A DNA stretch of 64,000 nucleotides from contig CAVWVI010000003.1 of NCBI GenBank assembly GCA_963758495.1, forward strand, positions 736,001 through 800,000, in the 5' to 3' direction. How positions within the stretch are numbered: position 1 is the first letter of the stretch; each line of letters starts with the position of its first letter. The stretch comes from Oligoflexia bacterium. Lineage in GTDB: Bacteria; Bdellovibrionota; UBA1018. Positions 4,822-54,202 of the stretch are shown one piece after another. A model generated the notes under the pieces. It made no database searches. It saw only the letters and a list, made by a program, of their open reading frames with translations, and was not told the DNA's origin. Made by a program: the position numbers and the translations under genes.

Positions 4822-4922
4822 AAAAGCAGTTCCTTTGGGGCTGGTGACAAGCGCTGTAAGGAGTCCTGTTACGCCGTAAAGATTTGGATTCCCGGCGTAA
4901 CAGGACTCCTTACAGTGCTTAC
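4822..4922 (+). mobile_element. MITE-like element, copy 1 (~101 bp, long internal hairpin)
   Basis: Starts aaaagcagttcctttgg, ends cttac; 28-bp stem aagcgctgtaaggagtcctgttacgccg/cggcgtaacaggactccttacagtgctt; flanks ccctaac/ctctaac (6/7 match). Confidence 0.8.
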
Positions 4923-7986: not shown

Positions 7987-9216
7987 CTAGTTCTGAGGGC
8001 TAAAAGCACACCGAAACCCGACAACCGCGTACGAGCCAGAGGCGGAATAGTTCAGAAACGCAGCGAAGACTCCAGCGTTCGTGTCAGCGGACCAGGAACC
8101 ACCCCGCAAGGCGGCCCCGGCATTATACATGTAGATTTTACCCACATTCTGTGTTGAGCTGTATGAACCGAGTGGGGCAAAAAGGAATTTATTCTGACTC
8201 CCCTCTGAGAAATAGGTAGCGTTGTTATATTCCTGCCATATATTCTGTCCTGTTCTTAGATCATCCGATACCCATTCCGATACGTTCCCTGCCATATCCC
8301 AAATCACTTCTCCATTGCTCAATGCGTGCGTCCTTTTATGAGTCCAGTCACTGTGATTAGTCCCAACGTAGGGATTCTCATCTGTGCCCGGAGCTGCGGC
8401 TGCATTTGAATTACTGTTGCCCCGCGATAATTGTCCCGCCCCTACTGCTCCACTACTCCAGTTTGCCGGGGTAGCCTCAATACCTCTTGCAATCGTCATC
8501 CACTCGTCATTCGTGATCAAATGGTATCCTGCTCCATTCGCTGCACAAGCTGCTTGCGCGGCTTCCCGAGCAATATTCACCCACGGCAACGCCCCTACTC
8601 TTGACTTCGCAGTGTATCCTTCGCGAGATGCCTCATACTTCATGACACAAAAACTTGTTCCCGCTGTCGGTGTTGAGTACGTTTCATTACCGGGCACCGA
8701 AATGTAGCCCTCAGGACATTCTACATCCGAACCTATTTTGACGGGTACCTGTCCCAGTTGTTGGCCCGCTTGCGCCATTTTGCTACGAGGTTTCCTTTTT
8801 AAAAGTTTGCAAATATATTCCTCGGCTAAAGGCAATCCCAGATCTTCGCAGATGGTTAATGTATCTTCCCGATCCGCATCATTTTTGAAATTCACTTTTC
8901 CATGTCTAAGGAAGTTCAAAATATATCTCTTGGTAAGTTCTCCATTGACATCCAGCTCGAAAGCGGTCTCTTCAGACTTTCCATCATGAATTTCAGACTC
9001 CGCCATCAGATTGCAAATTCCAGACAACTTCCCATCTGGATCCATGTGATATTCCAAATTATCTGGGTCACACCAAAACTTTTCTCCGTCTGCTGTTTTG
9101 AAGTAAACCTTCTCTCCAGCCATCACTTGAGAAGGTTGAACGACCATCCCACTGATCACGAATGTGCTCAGTGCCAACCCATACAAAACTTTATTTCTTA
9201 ATTCGAATAATTTCAT
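7987..9216 (-). CDS. Secreted BTB/POZ-like + FGE-sulfatase (CLec-fold) protein, putative DGR target
   Basis: Signal peptide (..QVMA|GE); ELDVNGELTKRYILNFLRHGKV resembles KCTD-type BTB; FCVMKYEA, LITNDEW, IWDMAGNVSEWV and RGGSW..VGFRC are FGE/CLec motifs. Confidence 0.8.
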   Translation of the reverse strand: MKLFELRNKVLYGLALSTFVISGMVVQPSQVMAGEKVYFKTADGEKFWCDPDNLEYHMDPDGKLSGICNLMAESEIHDGKSEETAFELDVNGELTKRYILNFLRHGKVNFKNDADREDTLTICEDLGLPLAEEYICKLLKRKPRSKMAQAGQQLGQVPVKIGSDVECPEGYISVPGNETYSTPTAGTSFCVMKYEASREGYTAKSRVGALPWVNIAREAAQAACAANGAGYHLITNDEWMTIARGIEATPANWSSGAVGAGQLSRGNSNSNAAAAPGTDENPYVGTNHSDWTHKRTHALSNGEVIWDMAGNVSEWVSDDLRTGQNIWQEYNNATYFSEGSQNKFLFAPLGSYSSTQNVGKIYMYNAGAALRGGSWSADTNAGVFAAFLNYSASGSYAVVGFRCAFSPQN

Positions 9217-9314
9217 AAATCACTTTTATTTCTTTCTTTTCTCTTTTTTTTTAAACTCAAGTCATCTTTACAATTCATCTTGCAACGACGTGTTCATTTT
9301 TAAAAATGACCGTT

Positions 9315-11771
9315 CTAAAAATGAGGATCTCGCAAGGGTTTGTACCTCATTTTGTCGCGCACATGGCCATGTCCACTTGGGGAGCCCTTATTCCAATCCC
9401 AATCATTGTGGCAGCGACTACAAGTCATCGCATTACATCCATCAGACCGTTCCGTAATCACTCCACAGTGATAACAGGGTCGAAATCTACCTCGGAGATC
9501 ATCGTTTGAAAGTTTAATTACTGGAGGTGCCTCAGCTCCCAACTTTAGAAGCTTTTCAAACTCTTTCATTTGTTCTGCATACTGAGAACATGCGCCCTGA
9601 TGCTCATTTCCGCATCGGATGCATCCTTCCTGCTCGCATAAAAAGCACGAGTAAAATGCAGATTTTTCCTGAGGTTGAACGATCCTTCCTCCAGCACAGC
9701 CTGCGGTAGGGCAAACTACCCAGCCCATTTGTTGAGCATTCACTCGATCCACAATTCTCATTCTCACTTTTTCCACATCAGCTCCTGATCGACCCTGCTG
9801 AGCTAGATACTCTGTATGGAGGATATTCTTACATCCTGGACATTGATTGAGATCTTCTCCGTCTCGGTTGACCACCATATCGCAATATCCGGTAGCACAA
9901 TCTTGACAGAGATAACATGAACAGCCAGCGGGACCCGGCTGTGAGTGATCTTGATCCATTCGTTCGTCAAAGCAAGAGAGACATTGGTTTGTATTTACGG
10001 GCTCGATGGGAGCAGATGGAGCATTTGCAGTAGCAATTTCAGCAGAAGCTAATACTGGAGCTGTCTCGCTGACCTCTGATCGAGGAGCCTCGATCTTGCC
10101 TATAAAGTGCTGCCAGGCTCTTTTCAATCCATATTCTCGACCCTGACTTGAAGAGGAAGCTTCTGTAGATTGAGAAGATTCTGACGATCTTATCGATGGT
10201 GTTGCTACTGGGAGTCTCTGCTCCTGGATTTCCTTCTCACGTTCCTGATAGTAGAATTCCTTGGCCTTCAGATTCATCAGCTTCTTAAGCTGCTTAATAG
10301 GAGCGATTAGATCCGAATTTTCGTTCTCAATTCGCTCCCCTTCAAACGAAATCGCGCACTCAGATTTTAGGTTCAAGATCTCGCTCAATTTGGATGCAGT
10401 TTGAGTGGATGAAAACAATTGCACCCACTTCTCAATCTGAGAACTCCAGCCTTGTCTGGCAACCAGCTCTAGAATTGCTCTGAGTTCGGAAGTTCCAAAA
10501 TACTGTTCCTCTCCCTTTTCTAAAATCAACTGAGCTATTTTAAGATTTCGTGCTTTGCTAGCCCATACCAGTGCCGGGAGACCCTCTTTACCGGGAAATT
10601 TCAAGTCACAATCATCCCTGGTAATGAATGCTGCACCAGATAGGGAAATAGAATCCAAAATAAATTTTATGATCTCTGTTTTCCCTTTTTCGGAAGCCAG
10701 AGTCAGAGGAGTATGGCCACTTGAGTGAGAGAGTAACTTCGGACAAAGTTGCGCCCCCCTGCTTGCTGCGAGCTTCACCATTTCTAGATTTCCTCGCTCA
10801 ATAGCAGACATCAATATCGGTTCGAGAGGTCCTAAATCCGCTCCATGATCTAGCGAAACTGAAATCACGTCCGATCGGTCATTCTCCACAGCCCATTTCA
10901 GAAGTGTGCGACCTTGAAGCCTCTCGTAATCTTTTTGATTCGAGTACGCGCTCTTATTTAGCGGAAAAACTTGGTTCGGATTCACTCCGCGCTCTAAAAG
11001 AATTTTGATAATCTCAAACTGAGAGGATGCGGCTGCCTGAACTAAAGGCGTTCTCCCTCGGCCATCAGGCTGATTCACTAATGCCTGTTCATTGAACTGG
11101 TTTTTTCCAAGAACTCCCTTCAAAGAAAGAAGATATTTGGCTAGATGAACTGAATTTGTTTCGATCGCCCAAGTCAGGATAGAACGATCATGAAAACGAT
11201 CATACTGCTTTGAATCCACATAGGCATTGGAGTCTGCAGGAAACAAAGAATCAGGACGAGCGCCATTTTCTAAACTCAATTTTAAAAATTTGAATTGTTC
11301 CTGCTCTGTTCTAGCAGATACGAGCGATTGCATGAGGGCTGTCCAACCCATGCTGTCCTGATGGTTCATCACCGCTCCTCGCGAAAGCAAAGTCCGCATC
11401 AGTTCAAGTTGACCCTTCTGTGTCGCAGAAAGGAGCGCGGTTCTCCCTTGGTGATCAGCTAAATTGATATCTGCGCCTCTGTCCAAAAGGGATTGCAGAA
11501 CGTCTAATCCGGTCCCAGACTCAATTGCCAAAATCAAGGCAGTCTTTCCATCCTGGTCCGTTTCGTTAACGAATTGGCGAGTGTTCTGATTTTTTTGTTC
11601 TAAGGACGCGAGAAGCTGAATCGCCAAGCTCCGATTTTTGCCCTTAATAGCTACGTGCAGATCATTAAAATTACCTGGAGCATCTCCCTGGCAATAGCCC
11701 AGTTGGGTATCTTCGAATGCAACTAGGCCCGTTATTACTGATAAGACTAGAATAAATTTCCTTGGTTCCAT
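9315..11771 (-). CDS. Secreted ankyrin-repeat + RING1-IBR-RING2 (RBR) E3-ligase-like protein
   Basis: Signal-like N-terminus; ankyrins (GKTALILA, GRTALLSA, GRTPLVQA, GHTPLTLA); RING1 CLSC..CSCYLCQDC..CPGC; IBR WVVCPTAGC..CFLC..CIRC..HQGAC; RING2 RPCYHC..ERSDGCNAMTCSRC. Confidence 0.85.
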   Translation of the reverse strand: MEPRKFILVLSVITGLVAFEDTQLGYCQGDAPGNFNDLHVAIKGKNRSLAIQLLASLEQKNQNTRQFVNETDQDGKTALILAIESGTGLDVLQSLLDRGADINLADHQGRTALLSATQKGQLELMRTLLSRGAVMNHQDSMGWTALMQSLVSARTEQEQFKFLKLSLENGARPDSLFPADSNAYVDSKQYDRFHDRSILTWAIETNSVHLAKYLLSLKGVLGKNQFNEQALVNQPDGRGRTPLVQAAASSQFEIIKILLERGVNPNQVFPLNKSAYSNQKDYERLQGRTLLKWAVENDRSDVISVSLDHGADLGPLEPILMSAIERGNLEMVKLAASRGAQLCPKLLSHSSGHTPLTLASEKGKTEIIKFILDSISLSGAAFITRDDCDLKFPGKEGLPALVWASKARNLKIAQLILEKGEEQYFGTSELRAILELVARQGWSSQIEKWVQLFSSTQTASKLSEILNLKSECAISFEGERIENENSDLIAPIKQLKKLMNLKAKEFYYQEREKEIQEQRLPVATPSIRSSESSQSTEASSSSQGREYGLKRAWQHFIGKIEAPRSEVSETAPVLASAEIATANAPSAPIEPVNTNQCLSCFDERMDQDHSQPGPAGCSCYLCQDCATGYCDMVVNRDGEDLNQCPGCKNILHTEYLAQQGRSGADVEKVRMRIVDRVNAQQMGWVVCPTAGCAGGRIVQPQEKSAFYSCFLCEQEGCIRCGNEHQGACSQYAEQMKEFEKLLKLGAEAPPVIKLSNDDLRGRFRPCYHCGVITERSDGCNAMTCSRCHNDWDWNKGSPSGHGHVRDKMRYKPLRDPHF

Positions 11772-30167: not shown

Positions 30168-30218
30168 TCGCCCCTTAAAATTAAATCATCACTTCTCAAC
30201 AGTTACTGACAGTTTTCT

Positions 30219-30325
30219 GTAAACAGTTCCTTTATGGCTATTGATAAGCGCTGTAAGGAGAGAGTTCTGTTGTGCCGTAAAGTCTCTTGGATTCCCGACG
30301 CAACAGGACTCCTTACAGTGCTTAC
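30219..30325 (+). mobile_element. MITE-like element, copy 2
   Basis: gtaaacagttcctttatggc...cttac with the same hairpin; flanks gttttct/gttttcc. Confidence 0.8.
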
Positions 30326-30331
30326 GTTTTC

Positions 30332-45593: not shown

Positions 45594-45638
45594 ATCAATA
45601 GGACCCCAACTGCAAAAAGTCGGGTCTAAAACTTCTAC

Positions 45639-45739
45639 GTAAGTAGTTCCTTTAGGGGTGTTGACAAGAACTGCCAGGAGCCCTGTTGCGCCGTAAAGAT
45701 TTGGATTCCCGGCGCAATAGGGCTCCTGGCAGTTCTTAC
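45639..45739 (+). mobile_element. MITE-like element, copy 3, with a perfect 8-bp target duplication
   Basis: acttctac|gtaagtagttcc...gttcttac|acttctac. Confidence 0.88.
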
Positions 45740-45743
45740 ACTT

Positions 45744-46727
45744 CTACATTGGATTGAGACCGTGGTTATCCTCTAACTTAATAAGTCTCTTTTTCAAAAT
45801 CTCACGCTGCTTCACTCTTGGATCAACGGTACAGGAATGCGCTTCAGGTCTGTAGTGCTTCTCGCAGAATTCACCGCCACATCCGCATTTGTCCATCAAA
45901 AGATGCTTCTTACACTTTGGAAAACTGCATTTTTGGGAAAAAAACTGATTACTTGAATCGTGAACCGATTGAGAACCTGCATTCACAAAAGCCGTTGAAT
46001 GGGCAACCTCTTCATTTGTCTTTGGAGCTGCTTGTGCAGCTGTCTTTCTAGCTATCTGTGCAGCTACTTCATTTAACTGAAGCAAATACTCTAAATTTAA
46101 ATCACTATCATTTTCGTGATCACCTTCGATTTTTTCGAGCATCTTTTCAGGGTTAAAATCCGTTTCTAATTTTGTATCAATCACTTTTTCAGCTATTGAT
46201 TTTCTTATTTCAAATGAAATTCCAAGCTCATCGTTTCTTAAGCTTTTTTCAACGTCTGACAATAACTCACTAATCATGACAGTAACGTCAGTATTAAACA
46301 TTTGAACATAAGCAATTACTTTGTCTTTTTGCTCGCAAGCCTCTAAGGAGGCCTCGATCAAATCAGCACGTGCCTTTGAAAAATCATAATCCAATGCAAT
46401 CTGCTCTCGTGTAAACTCATCTTCTGAAGCGTTTAAGCGTTTACGCTGCATACTCAGAAGTAGCTGCTCTCGATTCCTATTTTCTTTTAAATGATCATCC
46501 AGAGTCTCATACTCTGAAGGACAGTATTTTTTCATGACTAGATTATGGAACCTTTTAAGCATGATAGCGAAATTCTTACTCAAGTTAAATTGAGCTGCCG
46601 TCATAAAATCATCCGCTTCATCCGCCCACGTCGTGCGAATGGTCTCGTAACCGCACAACGAAAATAAAAGTAGACCGATGAAAAAACTCGAAAAAGATTT
46701 TCCTTTTAAAACAGACTGAAATTTCAT
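45744..46727 (-). CDS. Secreted helical protein with a C-terminal AN1-type zinc finger
   Basis: Signal peptide (..TWA|D); CSFPKCKKHLLMDKCGCGGEFCEKHYRPEAHSC. Confidence 0.8.
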   Translation of the reverse strand: MKFQSVLKGKSFSSFFIGLLLFSLCGYETIRTTWADEADDFMTAAQFNLSKNFAIMLKRFHNLVMKKYCPSEYETLDDHLKENRNREQLLLSMQRKRLNASEDEFTREQIALDYDFSKARADLIEASLEACEQKDKVIAYVQMFNTDVTVMISELLSDVEKSLRNDELGISFEIRKSIAEKVIDTKLETDFNPEKMLEKIEGDHENDSDLNLEYLLQLNEVAAQIARKTAAQAAPKTNEEVAHSTAFVNAGSQSVHDSSNQFFSQKCSFPKCKKHLLMDKCGCGGEFCEKHYRPEAHSCTVDPRVKQREILKKRLIKLEDNHGLNPM

Positions 46728-51711: not shown

Positions 51712-51920
51712 AAGAAAAGTCTAACACAAGAAGCTAAAACATGAAGAATAAAGTTTTTTACTTTATATTTAATATTTTTGCCATATTTTTTTCCAGATGT
51801 AAACTCTTTAGATAGGTTTATTCTTCAAAAGTAGTCCTACTATATACTAACAATATGTAATTATTTATTTTTCTCCATGGCCTCCTACTTGCAATCACAC
51901 CAGCATTCGAGGAGCGAAAT

Positions 51921-52799
51921 ATGAAGAGATATCATGCGATCACATTAGGAATAATTTTAGTGAACTTCTCTACAATACTTGCTTCTAATGTGGTTTCGGC
52001 TGCACCAGAAAATAATTTTGAAATTCAAGGCATGCGTGTGCAGATCTCTGGTCCTGGGGCCACTGAAAATGAGGTTCGAAATGTGCGGGATCGAGTGAAG
52101 GGTCCCTGGCTGAATCATCTACTTGAAGACAAGCATAGAATGAATCAGATTGATGCTACTAGTCAGGCTGAAATTTGTCCTATCTGTTTAGACGAGATAC
52201 AGGGCAAGGATCTGATGTTGACTCCGTGTAATCATGTGTTTTGCAGCCCCTGTATTACCCAGGCTCTCGATAATCAACAGAAGTGCCCGGCATGTCGTCG
52301 AGAGCTTGTAAATTCCAAGGAACTCCAACCTTTCAGGTACACTCCTGGTGAGGAAGTGGAATTGGCACTTGAGATTAATATTCCTAATTTCGACGACCTA
52401 CTCACTCCTGAGTTTGCGGCACTTGGAGTCATGTACGAGGTGGAAGGCTTGATGTGGAGTGGGGTTGCAAAACGGCAAGGTTTTTGGAGAAGGCTTCTAC
52501 GCGAGAGTATCTGGACAATGAATTACGAGGATGCAACACGGTTTTGTCGAGATTTGGGAAGAGGAGCAAGATTGCCCACTCGGGAAGAGTATAGAGCTTT
52601 GAAAAGAGTGCTGGGGGGTCAAAATCGTTATAATCCTCGCATAATCTCAGATATGGTGGGCAATGGCTTTTGGTCGTCTTCAGTCGACCCCGACTTTCCT
52701 TCCAACTACGCCTATGAATTCAATGGCAGTACTGGTGTCAGTGGCAGCTTTGGCATGAGTCGTAAGCGTGCCGTCCGGTGCATATTGCCAGCGCGTTGA
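51921..52799 (+). CDS. Secreted C3HC4 RING + DUF1566-like CLec protein, putative DGR target
   Basis: GAGGAG RBS; signal peptide; CPICLD..PCNHVFCSPC..CPACR; GLMW..A..FC..RLPTREE..FWSSS..AVRC. Confidence 0.82.
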   Translation: MKRYHAITLGIILVNFSTILASNVVSAAPENNFEIQGMRVQISGPGATENEVRNVRDRVKGPWLNHLLEDKHRMNQIDATSQAEICPICLDEIQGKDLMLTPCNHVFCSPCITQALDNQQKCPACRRELVNSKELQPFRYTPGEEVELALEINIPNFDDLLTPEFAALGVMYEVEGLMWSGVAKRQGFWRRLLRESIWTMNYEDATRFCRDLGRGARLPTREEYRALKRVLGGQNRYNPRIISDMVGNGFWSSSVDPDFPSNYAYEFNGSTGVSGSFGMSRKRAVRCILPAR

Positions 52800-52847
52800 G
52801 CGTGGGTATAAGGAATTTGTTTTTATTGCCTTTAGGGATGCGAAAGA

Positions 52848-52912
52848 CACTGAATTGAGTCTTGAGGAGCCGTAAAGATCCCTTCCCCGGCTCCTCAAGA
52901 CTCAGTACAGTG
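52848..52912. terminator. 25-bp-stem hairpin between convergent genes, related to the MITE core
   Basis: cactgaattgagtcttgaggagccg-taaagatcccttccc-cggctcctcaagactcagtacagtg. Confidence 0.7.
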
Positions 52913-52913
52913 G

Positions 52914-54065
52914 CTACGGTTCAATGTACTCAAACTTCTGATTTTTGAAGTTTCTTAAAATCCACTTCTTACCTTCATGCTTGACCACGTAGTTAGGCAA
53001 GAGAGGAATTTTACCTCCACCGCCCGGTCCATCAATAACAAAGTGAGGCACTGCCATTCCACTGGTCCAACCTCGTAGATTCTCAATAATATTCAGTCCC
53101 ACTTCCACAGGGGTTCGGAAATGACTAATCCCTTGAGCCAAATCACATTGATAAATGTAATACGGTCGAACACGCATCATTAAGAGTTTATGATTCAACT
53201 CTTTTACAATCTTTGGACTATCATTCACACCTTTAAGCAGAACCATCTGGTTGTGTAAAACACAGCCGGCATCTGCCAAGCGAGCACATGCATCAAATGC
53301 TTCGAGGGTGCACTCTTTTGGATGATTGAAGTGAGTATGTACGAAAACAGGATGATATTTTTTCAACATATCCACAAAACTTTGCGTGACCCGATGAGGG
53401 AGTGTTACAATATTACGAGTACCCACACGAAAAACCTCGATATGCTCCATGGCTCGAATTCGTGAAATAATATACTCAAGTCGATCATCCGAATTAGAAA
53501 GAGGATCACCTCCAGAAATCACGACATCTCGGATTTCTTTGTGGCTTTCGATATAAGCCAAACTCTCTTCAAGCTGCTTATTTGCAGCAGAGGAGGAAGG
53601 ATCAGAGACTTTTCTTTTACGAGTACAGTGTCGACAATAAACCGGACAATTATGCGTCGTATAAAACAATACACGATCTGGGTATCGATGAGTAATACCC
53701 GGCACTGGCATATCTCTCTCTTCACCTAATGGATCTTCTAAGTCCGTGGGTAGAATATTGAGCTCGCCTGCTTTGGGTACAGATTGAAGGCGAATCGGAC
53801 AATTAGGATCGTCCTTGTCTATCAAGGATGCATAATACGGCGTAATTCCCATATTAAACATCTCATGGGACTGCGCAAATGCATCTCGCTCTTCTTGAGT
53901 CACGTGAATCACTTTTTCAAGCTGATCCATTGATTTGATGCGCTTTTGCTGCTGCCAAATCCAGTTATTCCAATCTTTATCTGGAACGTCCTTCCAAATT
54001 TCCGGACGTGGTGCACTCTTAAAACGATCACGTATATTATTTTTAGTAACAATATTAAAACTCAT
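52914..54065 (-). CDS. KamA-family radical SAM lysine 2,3-aminomutase-like protein
   Basis: THRYPDRV, CPVYCRHCTRKR, SGGDP, PGGGGK. Confidence 0.92.
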   Translation of the reverse strand: MSFNIVTKNNIRDRFKSAPRPEIWKDVPDKDWNNWIWQQQKRIKSMDQLEKVIHVTQEERDAFAQSHEMFNMGITPYYASLIDKDDPNCPIRLQSVPKAGELNILPTDLEDPLGEERDMPVPGITHRYPDRVLFYTTHNCPVYCRHCTRKRKVSDPSSSAANKQLEESLAYIESHKEIRDVVISGGDPLSNSDDRLEYIISRIRAMEHIEVFRVGTRNIVTLPHRVTQSFVDMLKKYHPVFVHTHFNHPKECTLEAFDACARLADAGCVLHNQMVLLKGVNDSPKIVKELNHKLLMMRVRPYYIYQCDLAQGISHFRTPVEVGLNIIENLRGWTSGMAVPHFVIDGPGGGGKIPLLPNYVVKHEGKKWILRNFKNQKFEYIEP

Positions 54066-54202
54066 TCGCCCCCCTCGCTTCGTGTCATTTTTTGACACCT
54101 TCAACCGTCTGGAATGCCAGATTATTGCATCATTGTAAATGGACTATTTGCACCACCATTGGAAGTCATTTGTATTTACGACCCACTTAGGTGTATTTTT
54201 GA

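Follow-up and report, generated by a model that had tools for sequence, protein, structure and literature searches.

Layout of the locus

The window, by which we mean the whole stretch of 64,000 nucleotides that was analysed, belongs to an assembly (G000) of 5 contigs that is 92.1% complete. The focal gene in it encodes a RING domain followed by a C-type-lectin-fold domain, the latter referred to below as the tip. The features that matter for the argument are the following.

51909..51914, plus strand: ribosome-binding site GAGGAG 5' of the ATG, read off the sequence
51921..52799, plus strand: focal ORF, 292 aa, consisting of signal peptide, linker, C3HC4 RING, linker and C-type-lectin-fold domain (Pfam, structure model, fold matches)
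51921..52001, plus strand: probable Sec signal peptide, residues 1-27, with a basic start, a hydrophobic core and a VSA-AP end (by eye and hydropathy)
52176..52295, plus strand: C3HC4 RING, residues 86-125, with all eight metal ligands present and a CPxC-R end (PF13923, alignment to RNF4 and RING2)
52416..52796, plus strand: Lcl_C-like C-type-lectin-fold domain, residues 166-292 (PF07603 below cut-off, fold matches, local profile)
52668..52781, plus strand: very probably a former DGR variable region (FWSSS...AVRC), with codons ending in C or T, aged (codon and paralog comparisons)
52773..52806, plus strand: IMH-like 3' end, including GCGTGGG right after the stop, common to other tip genes and to the variable repeats of relatives (sequence similarity)
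52825..52921, plus strand: divergent copy of a dispersed palindromic repeat, arms 52845-52872 and 52888-52915, between convergent genes and not a DGR part
7987..9216, minus strand: FGE-sulfatase-class tip (Pfam) on an N-terminal domain that is BTB-like by eye only
9315..11771, minus strand: ankyrin-repeat and IBR protein (Pfam), directly upstream of 7987..9216

The make-up of the focal gene is mosaic: over bases 1-456 it shares 85-90% identity with two RING paralogs, and over bases 621-761 its nearest relative is a stand-alone tip gene (80%). The signal peptide proposed in an earlier, sequence-only reading of this DNA was recognised again by inspection and by a hydropathy peak of 2.3 over residues 6-16, and on these grounds it is kept as probable rather than confirmed. 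A word-index search with the focal protein returned the focal gene and its split paralog only. Downstream, a lysine 2,3-aminomutase-like radical SAM gene (52914-54104) converges on the focal gene. Elsewhere in the window, the product of 45744-46727 looks secreted and has at its C-terminus an AN1 zinc finger (PF01428, over cut-off), which is a eukaryote-type domain tied to proteasome biology.

The arms of the long hairpin that had been noticed 3' of the focal stop codon are real, but the element is not a DGR-specific signal. With an E value of 2e-8 it matches, in diverged form, a palindrome of about 105 bases that occurs at 80 sites in the genome and adjoins just 1 of the 20 genes carrying this tip, and on these grounds a DGR cruciform is rejected. 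Since such hairpin repeats are present in only 34% of DGRs according to the accessible part of PMC5758913, the lack of a target-specific hairpin is not decisive. Further copies of the palindrome are found in the window at 4824-4922, 30218-30329 and 45638-45741, and some copies are split by short inserts, REP- or MITE-like.

The RING and the lectin tip

The intact C3HC4 RING of the sequence-only reading is well founded. The match to PF13923 is over cut-off (E 2.6e-11), and the best solved relatives are RNF4 (E 5.7e-22, in a tandem construct) and RING2/RING1B (1.4e-12); the eight ligands as well as the E2-facing I and P-x-C-R residues agree with both RNF4 and RING2. In an AlphaFold model of the protein (mean pLDDT 76.5) the RING superposes on that of RING1B with a Z of 9.2 (rmsd 2.8, 66 aligned). 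The genome holds 19 RING matches as compared to none in 14 control genomes, along with 6 IBR matches and F-box-like genes. Profiles for E2 enzymes (PF00179) and nucleotide translocases (PF03219) were silent in this genome, but they were silent on the controls as well and hence do not speak for an absence of these genes.

A CLec-like domain of the DUF1566 type, which we take to be the former name of the Lcl_C family, had been assigned to the C-terminus, and this assignment is upheld by a weak Pfam match in combination with C-type lectin folds. The match to PF07603 covers residues 174-288 and, with an E value of 4.9e-6 and 27.3 bits, stays below the curated cut-off of 34.9, which is exceeded by none of the 13 PF07603 matches in the genome. 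The modelled domain resembles InvE (Z 12.3), Bdellovibrio Bd2740 (Z 11.6) and Legionella Lcl (Z 11.3, rmsd 6.5, 107 aligned), and also the DGR proteins TvpA (Z 10.1, rmsd 3.5, 133 aligned) and Mtd (Z 8.5, rmsd 3.3, 125 aligned). Because the C-terminal fold of Lcl is matched, the tip is called Lcl_C-like despite its sub-cut-off score. Two cysteines are almost invariant across the tips, which makes a disulfide formed outside the cytosol probable.

A family of tip fusions

With a local profile, 20 ORFs carrying this Lcl_C-like tip were found in the genome, always with the tip at the C-terminus. Genes of E3 type account for nine of them: three have a RING (in one case the gene is split), two a RING with ankyrin repeats, two a full RBR and two a part that is RING2/IBR-like. 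In the other 11 the tip is joined to a metallophosphatase, to Sel1 repeats, to an unexplained domain of 770-890 aa, or to no partner. Fifteen of the ORFs have a hydrophobic N-terminal stretch and the remaining five are pieces. A stop or an insertion sequence breaks up two of the 20 tip genes, and further ones are fragmented. The closest RING paralog (L008:11212-13970, G000:C2) has an IS607-like element, with a resolvase and a TnpB-like ORF by eye, inside its variable region.

The two full RBR genes, L013:3199-4998 (G000:C4:41195-42997) and L014:2949-4535 (G000:C4:226948-228537), combine a signal-peptide-like start, a complete RING1-IBR-RING2 and the lectin tip. The former (C4:41195) aligns with ARIH1 across RING1-IBR-RING2, including the position of the catalytic cysteine (E 3.4e-10). 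According to the accessible part of a 2026 review, bacterial RBR counterparts have not been identified (PMC13720258). In the focal protein, as in L113, a protein with an F-box and a tip, no recognised domain other than the tip is left for substrate binding. Of the best 150 matches in a library-wide search, which in part are proteins of this genome or its relatives themselves, 91 carry the tip, and rough pattern matching placed an upstream RING, RING2 or F-box motif in 24 of these 91.

Secreted-looking proteins of 770-950 aa that have a conserved DCGET motif and the lectin tip occur in this genome (L010, L011, L020, L021) and in relatives (L098, L106, L110, L123, L124). Their large domain gave no Pfam match outside the tip in the members scanned, and taking it for a cysteine protease or a deubiquitinase would be guesswork.

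The sequence-only reading further proposed that the focal gene is a second, independent fusion of an E3 module to a diversifiable binder, 43 kb from a first one with another lectin class, and that this points to a recurring design. The different lectin class of the gene 43 kb away, at 7987..9216 (FGE-sulfatase), is correct, but its E3 module was not confirmed: searches for a BTB domain at its N-terminus gave no Pfam match, no solved-structure match and no usable Atlas match, and a model of this part (pLDDT 46) had no fold match above Z 3.4. The recurring design itself is more strongly supported than could be seen from the window, with the Lcl_C-like tip on RING, ankyrin-RING and RBR-type genes, and FGE-class tips on ankyrin-RING and F-box-like ones. 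Among the 18 FGE-class ORFs examined in the genome, two are ankyrin-RING, three F-box-like (one over the Pfam cut-off) and four Sel1-type (one scanned), while four look like BTB by eye, 7987..9216 included. At three places (window 7987-11771; G000:C5 ~156050-157774; G000:C2 ~80082-81787) an FGE-tip gene with the same BTB-looking N-terminus is immediately preceded by a long IBR-containing ORF. RBR and cullin-adaptor ligases cooperate, and by analogy the IBR ORF and the adjoining FGE-tip gene could form a working pair.

The probable variable region of the focal gene

The codon signature that first drew attention to the 3' part of the gene is real: 29 of the 33 codons in 52683-52781 end in C or T, as compared to 128 of 254 upstream in the same gene. 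The mean share of such codons in the genome is 0.53, and at least 29 are reached by 598 of 841,054 windows of 33 codons; windows as extreme as the focal one occur in 33 of 1,956 long ORFs. With the amino acids kept fixed, the FW..AVRC stretch has 31 of 38 codons ending in C or T where 23.8 are expected (P 9.8e-4, for a window picked post hoc).

When the focal gene is set against 16 paralogs, the differences at codon positions 1, 2 and 3 are 0.44, 0.42 and 0.57 in the core, versus 0.57, 0.59 and 0.49 in the variable region. Against three paralogs with distant cores, third positions differ at 50-51 of 75 codons in the core and at 8-10 of 28 codons in the variable region (Fisher p 0.0006-0.007), where first and second positions together differ at 27-34 of 56 sites. 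Within those three close paralogs the variable region has a lower third-position share of differences (p 0.005-0.04). No significant difference in third-position share was found between the focal tip and its four closest tips (p 0.16-0.69), and a leave-one-out test of third bases in the focal gene gave p 0.04 for the variable region and p 0.003 for the core, and so did not discriminate. The third-position effect is in part compositional. The public runs listed for this DNA comprise one DNA run, with a small share of it, and no RNA run. A contig from the DNA run (depth 2.6) covers only 52650-52862, with 0 differences; rare variants are lost in contigs, and the run may not be independent.

A search of the genome for paralogous 3' ends, as envisaged in the sequence-only reading, did reveal a short end that reaches just beyond the stop codon and is common to tip genes. 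Of the 10 genomic copies of the motif TGAGCGTGGG, 5 are at tip ends, and a variant is present on two further tips. The GCGTGG after the stop is also found in the variable repeats of complete DGRs in three relatives (G042, G041, G058), the templates of which differ at this site.

Search for DGR machinery

That the focal tip can be diversified at present, as had been suggested, is not borne out by the assembly, in which a template, a DGR-type reverse transcriptase (RT) and Avd were all not found. An A-rich template of 52668-52790 was sought over the genome with six focal windows in an ungapped scan allowing mismatches at A only, and the best non-self match had 25 non-A mismatches in 123 bases. 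The same scan with two windows for each of 18 tips gave none, and scans for AAY-rich stretches and motifs showed no template-like stretch among the matches listed. A DNA profile of tip ends, tried as a template finder, retrieved other tips only, and the A-richest piece, C2:123870, was rejected as a template, being the far half of the RING paralog that is split by the IS607-like element.

Five RT matches in the genome are over the Pfam cut-off. The two that were scanned are group II intron RT/maturases, and a third, which is broken, closely resembles one of these. Taken together (L001-L005; two scanned singly), the five appear to be of the group II intron type and of two kinds, and several adjoin transposase genes. 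A profile for the DGR RT clade had no match in this genome versus matches in 7 of 75 family genomes; there is a weak tblastn match for a DGR RT at C3:1673650 (E 0.026). For Avd (PF22296) the genome gave no match versus 10 of 75 family genomes, and tblastn with the Avd of three relatives was also empty. Given the 92.1% completeness of the assembly, it is likely that this genome lacks a DGR.

Complete DGRs in relatives

Of the 75 family genomes, 26 have the Lcl_C-like tip; the four g9 genomes show 7-14 matches and G084 shows 10. Eleven of the 75 contain IBR domains, and these are mostly the genomes that have the tip. Complete cassettes for this tip, comprising target, avd, template and a convergent RT, were found in G042, G041, G047, G058 and G001. 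The target in cis on contig G042:C26 has an IBR/RING2-like part (PF01485 E 0.0012; ARIH1 RING2 weak, E 0.055) followed by the lectin tip, and its variable region is mismatched to the template at 14 of 39 A positions as compared to 4 of 97 other bases (p 4.6e-6). This target begins at the contig end, and a frame break, which may be real or an assembly error, separates its RBR-like part from the tip.

An excess of differences at template A was also found, at p<0.05, in 8 of 12 tip genes of G042, intact RBR-like ones included, and, at p<0.01 against the G042 template, in 11 of 19 tips of the genome under study, although the outcome of such tests is skewed by the conserved scaffold positions, most of which are not A. 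The focal tip is not among these 11, with mismatches at 23 of 42 A and 38 of 96 other bases (p 0.07); five other foreign templates gave p 0.03-0.29. The G042 tip genes other than the cis target have 8-24 non-A differences from the template, and for that reason are read as old or irregular targets. Downstream of one RBR-like tip gene in G042 (L089:9327-11036, G042:C4) stands not the usual target end but the 3' flank that belongs to the template of G042, possibly a trace of new targets arising from template copies. In another relative, G055, the same tip is found on a Peptidase_C58-like domain (L125:888-2672).

From the genome collection 80 DGR loci were obtained, 47 of which have a template-variable pair. 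An E3-like gene accompanies 1 of these 47, on the G042 contig, and the link with E3 enzymes is thus specific to this branch. It is this relative that provides the strongest case for the link to a DGR.

Proposed mechanism and alternatives

The focal gene reads best as an orphaned and frozen former DGR target. That its tip was once such a target we regard as very probable, and that the tip serves as a substrate receptor is somewhat more probable than the opposite; for the complete picture, in which an exported eukaryote-type RING E3 has a lectin tip that picks substrates and was once written by a DGR since lost, we would give an even chance. An ancestor would have possessed a cassette of avd, template and reverse transcriptase, by which the tip was rewritten at template adenines. 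Copies of the tip would then have been spread by shuffling over various N-termini, among them RING, RBR, ankyrin-RING and F-box, and after loss of the cassette the focal tip would have been frozen and left to drift. Export of the protein by Sec, probably followed by type II secretion, is suggested by the N-termini and by a gsp-like cluster around one secretin in the genome (gene names by eye). VirB4-type (PF03135) and contractile sheath (PF04984) genes were not found in the 92% complete assembly. Upon reaching a eukaryotic cell, the RING might bind a host E2~ubiquitin and the tip a target, which would become ubiquitinated. Against this picture speaks that the tip is also joined to non-E3 proteins (metallophosphatase, Sel1, the 770-890 aa family, Peptidase_C58-like) and to ankyrin-RING proteins, which own a binding domain already.

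At the level of the family we tentatively propose, with a little less than even confidence, that a branch of the Bdellovibrionota has turned a DGR onto the tips of secreted ubiquitin ligases (RING, RBR, F-box). This would provide a renewable library of degraders against a eukaryotic host, with the cassette kept in G042 and a frozen library in the genome under study, and would include bacterial RBRs.

The main rival keeps the same DGR history, but has the tip as a delivery or docking module for the host surface or a membrane ligand, which would bring varied enzyme heads (RING, RBR, phosphatase, protease) to the cell or into it in the manner of the binding half of a two-part protein, with substrate choice residing elsewhere. 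Several observations agree with this: the same C-terminal tip is attached to unrelated enzymes (metallophosphatase, Peptidase_C58-like) besides E3 modules, its nearest folds are surface adhesins and lectins, the two near-invariant cysteines fit an extracytosolic disulfide, and the one FHIPEP gene found lies within the flagellar cluster. On the other hand, the RING-tip and F-box-tip proteins have no other detected domain for substrate binding, and a delivery module has no obvious need for a variable region that differs per paralog. We consider this rival unlikely.

The RING might also not be a working E3 for a eukaryotic host, but a decayed or structural zinc finger, or part of a bacterial ubiquitin-like system. 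The periplasm is oxidising and a Sec-exported zinc finger has to pass through it, and turnover of the family is rapid, as the interrupted and fragmented tip genes testify. The conservation of all eight ligands and of the E2-facing residues shared with RNF4 and RING2 argues against such a loss of function, while the set of 19 RING, 6 IBR and F-box-like genes suggests a eukaryotic partner, and there is but a small chance that this explanation is correct.

A slim chance is left for the focal gene as an active remote target, served by a template and RT in DNA outside the assembly (a gap, plasmid or prophage). The assembly is incomplete and in 5 contigs, the IMH-like end is intact, and non-adjacent targets do occur among CLec2/DUF1566 DGRs in the accessible part of PMC5758913. 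Against current activity stand the duplicated tips C3:243227 and C3:235983, whose variable regions are still almost identical, the one additional codon and the changes at scaffold positions that the focal variable region has acquired relative to its paralogs, and the 20 tips of the genome, which do not have one recent template pattern in common.

Finally, the notion that no DGR was ever involved, and that the C/T bias stems from the high G, S, N, F, Y and D content of a binding loop, the family owing its diversity to ordinary duplication and selection, agrees with the equally extreme windows in other long ORFs and the non-significant test of the focal tip against the G042 template, but is very improbable in view of the C/T excess after amino-acid control, the non-coding post-stop motif common to unrelated genes and the true template-variable pairs that relatives hold for this tip, and at the family level it is largely refuted by G042:C26.

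Significance and comparison with known systems

Among the known targets of DGRs are phage tails, surface adhesins and putative immune sensors, and the Bdellovibrionota are known for preying on other bacteria. If a DGR has indeed been coupled to ubiquitin ligases, a bacterium could evolve new degraders of host proteins through directed hypermutation, a eukaryote-associated lifestyle would have gone unrecognised in a phylum known as bacterial predators, and ARIH1-like RBR ligases would exist in bacteria.

A DGR-E3 fusion was not encountered in the literature searched, which had most subscription journals outside its reach. Within the accessible parts of the sources, the survey of DGR targets in PMC5758913 lists no ubiquitin-related ones, PMC8144416 and most of its supplements do not mention ubiquitin, RING families, F-box or IBR, the word ubiquitin is absent from PMC10907252, and PMC7159879 handles DGRs and ubiquitin-like systems apart.

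The closest DGR counterparts are the CLec2/DUF1566 targets, such as Legionella LdtA (category d in the accessible part of PMC5758913), which resemble the focal gene, whose product is apparently exported too, in a C-terminal lectin domain of the DUF1566/Lcl_C type, a 3' variable region and an IMH-like tail. Their N-termini are, as far as described there, adhesion, Ig-like or fimbrial modules, whereas the focal gene has a ubiquitin-ligase module, and a template, RT and Avd were not found in its genome. Multi-target DGRs with enzyme-lectin fusions (kinase, protease, TIR, vWA) similarly have a lectin tip on varied effectors and several targets per genome, but in the accessible parts of the reports they are mostly of the FGE class, occur in multicellular bacteria and are thought to act inside the bacterium (PMC5758913, PMC7159879, PMC10907252), whereas here E3 heads lie behind signal peptides.

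On the side of the ligases, the C3HC4 RING sequence is shared with eukaryotic RNF4 and RING2/RING1B, the fold of RING1B being matched as well, whereas the focal protein is bacterial and apparently secreted, and a lectin tip takes the place of their SUMO- and nucleosome-binding parts. The bacterial RING/U-box and F-box effectors LubX, RavN and SnRING, as treated in the accessible part of PMC13720258, also join a mimic of a host E3 to a binding domain. The focal protein differs from these by a probable Sec-type signal peptide and by a binding domain that very probably derives from a DGR, and its genome in addition encodes ARIH1-like RBR proteins with a lectin tip. The focal architecture is real and unusual, resembling both a CLec2/DUF1566 DGR target and a bacterial E3 effector rather than belonging to an active DGR, and this copy is most likely a frozen target.
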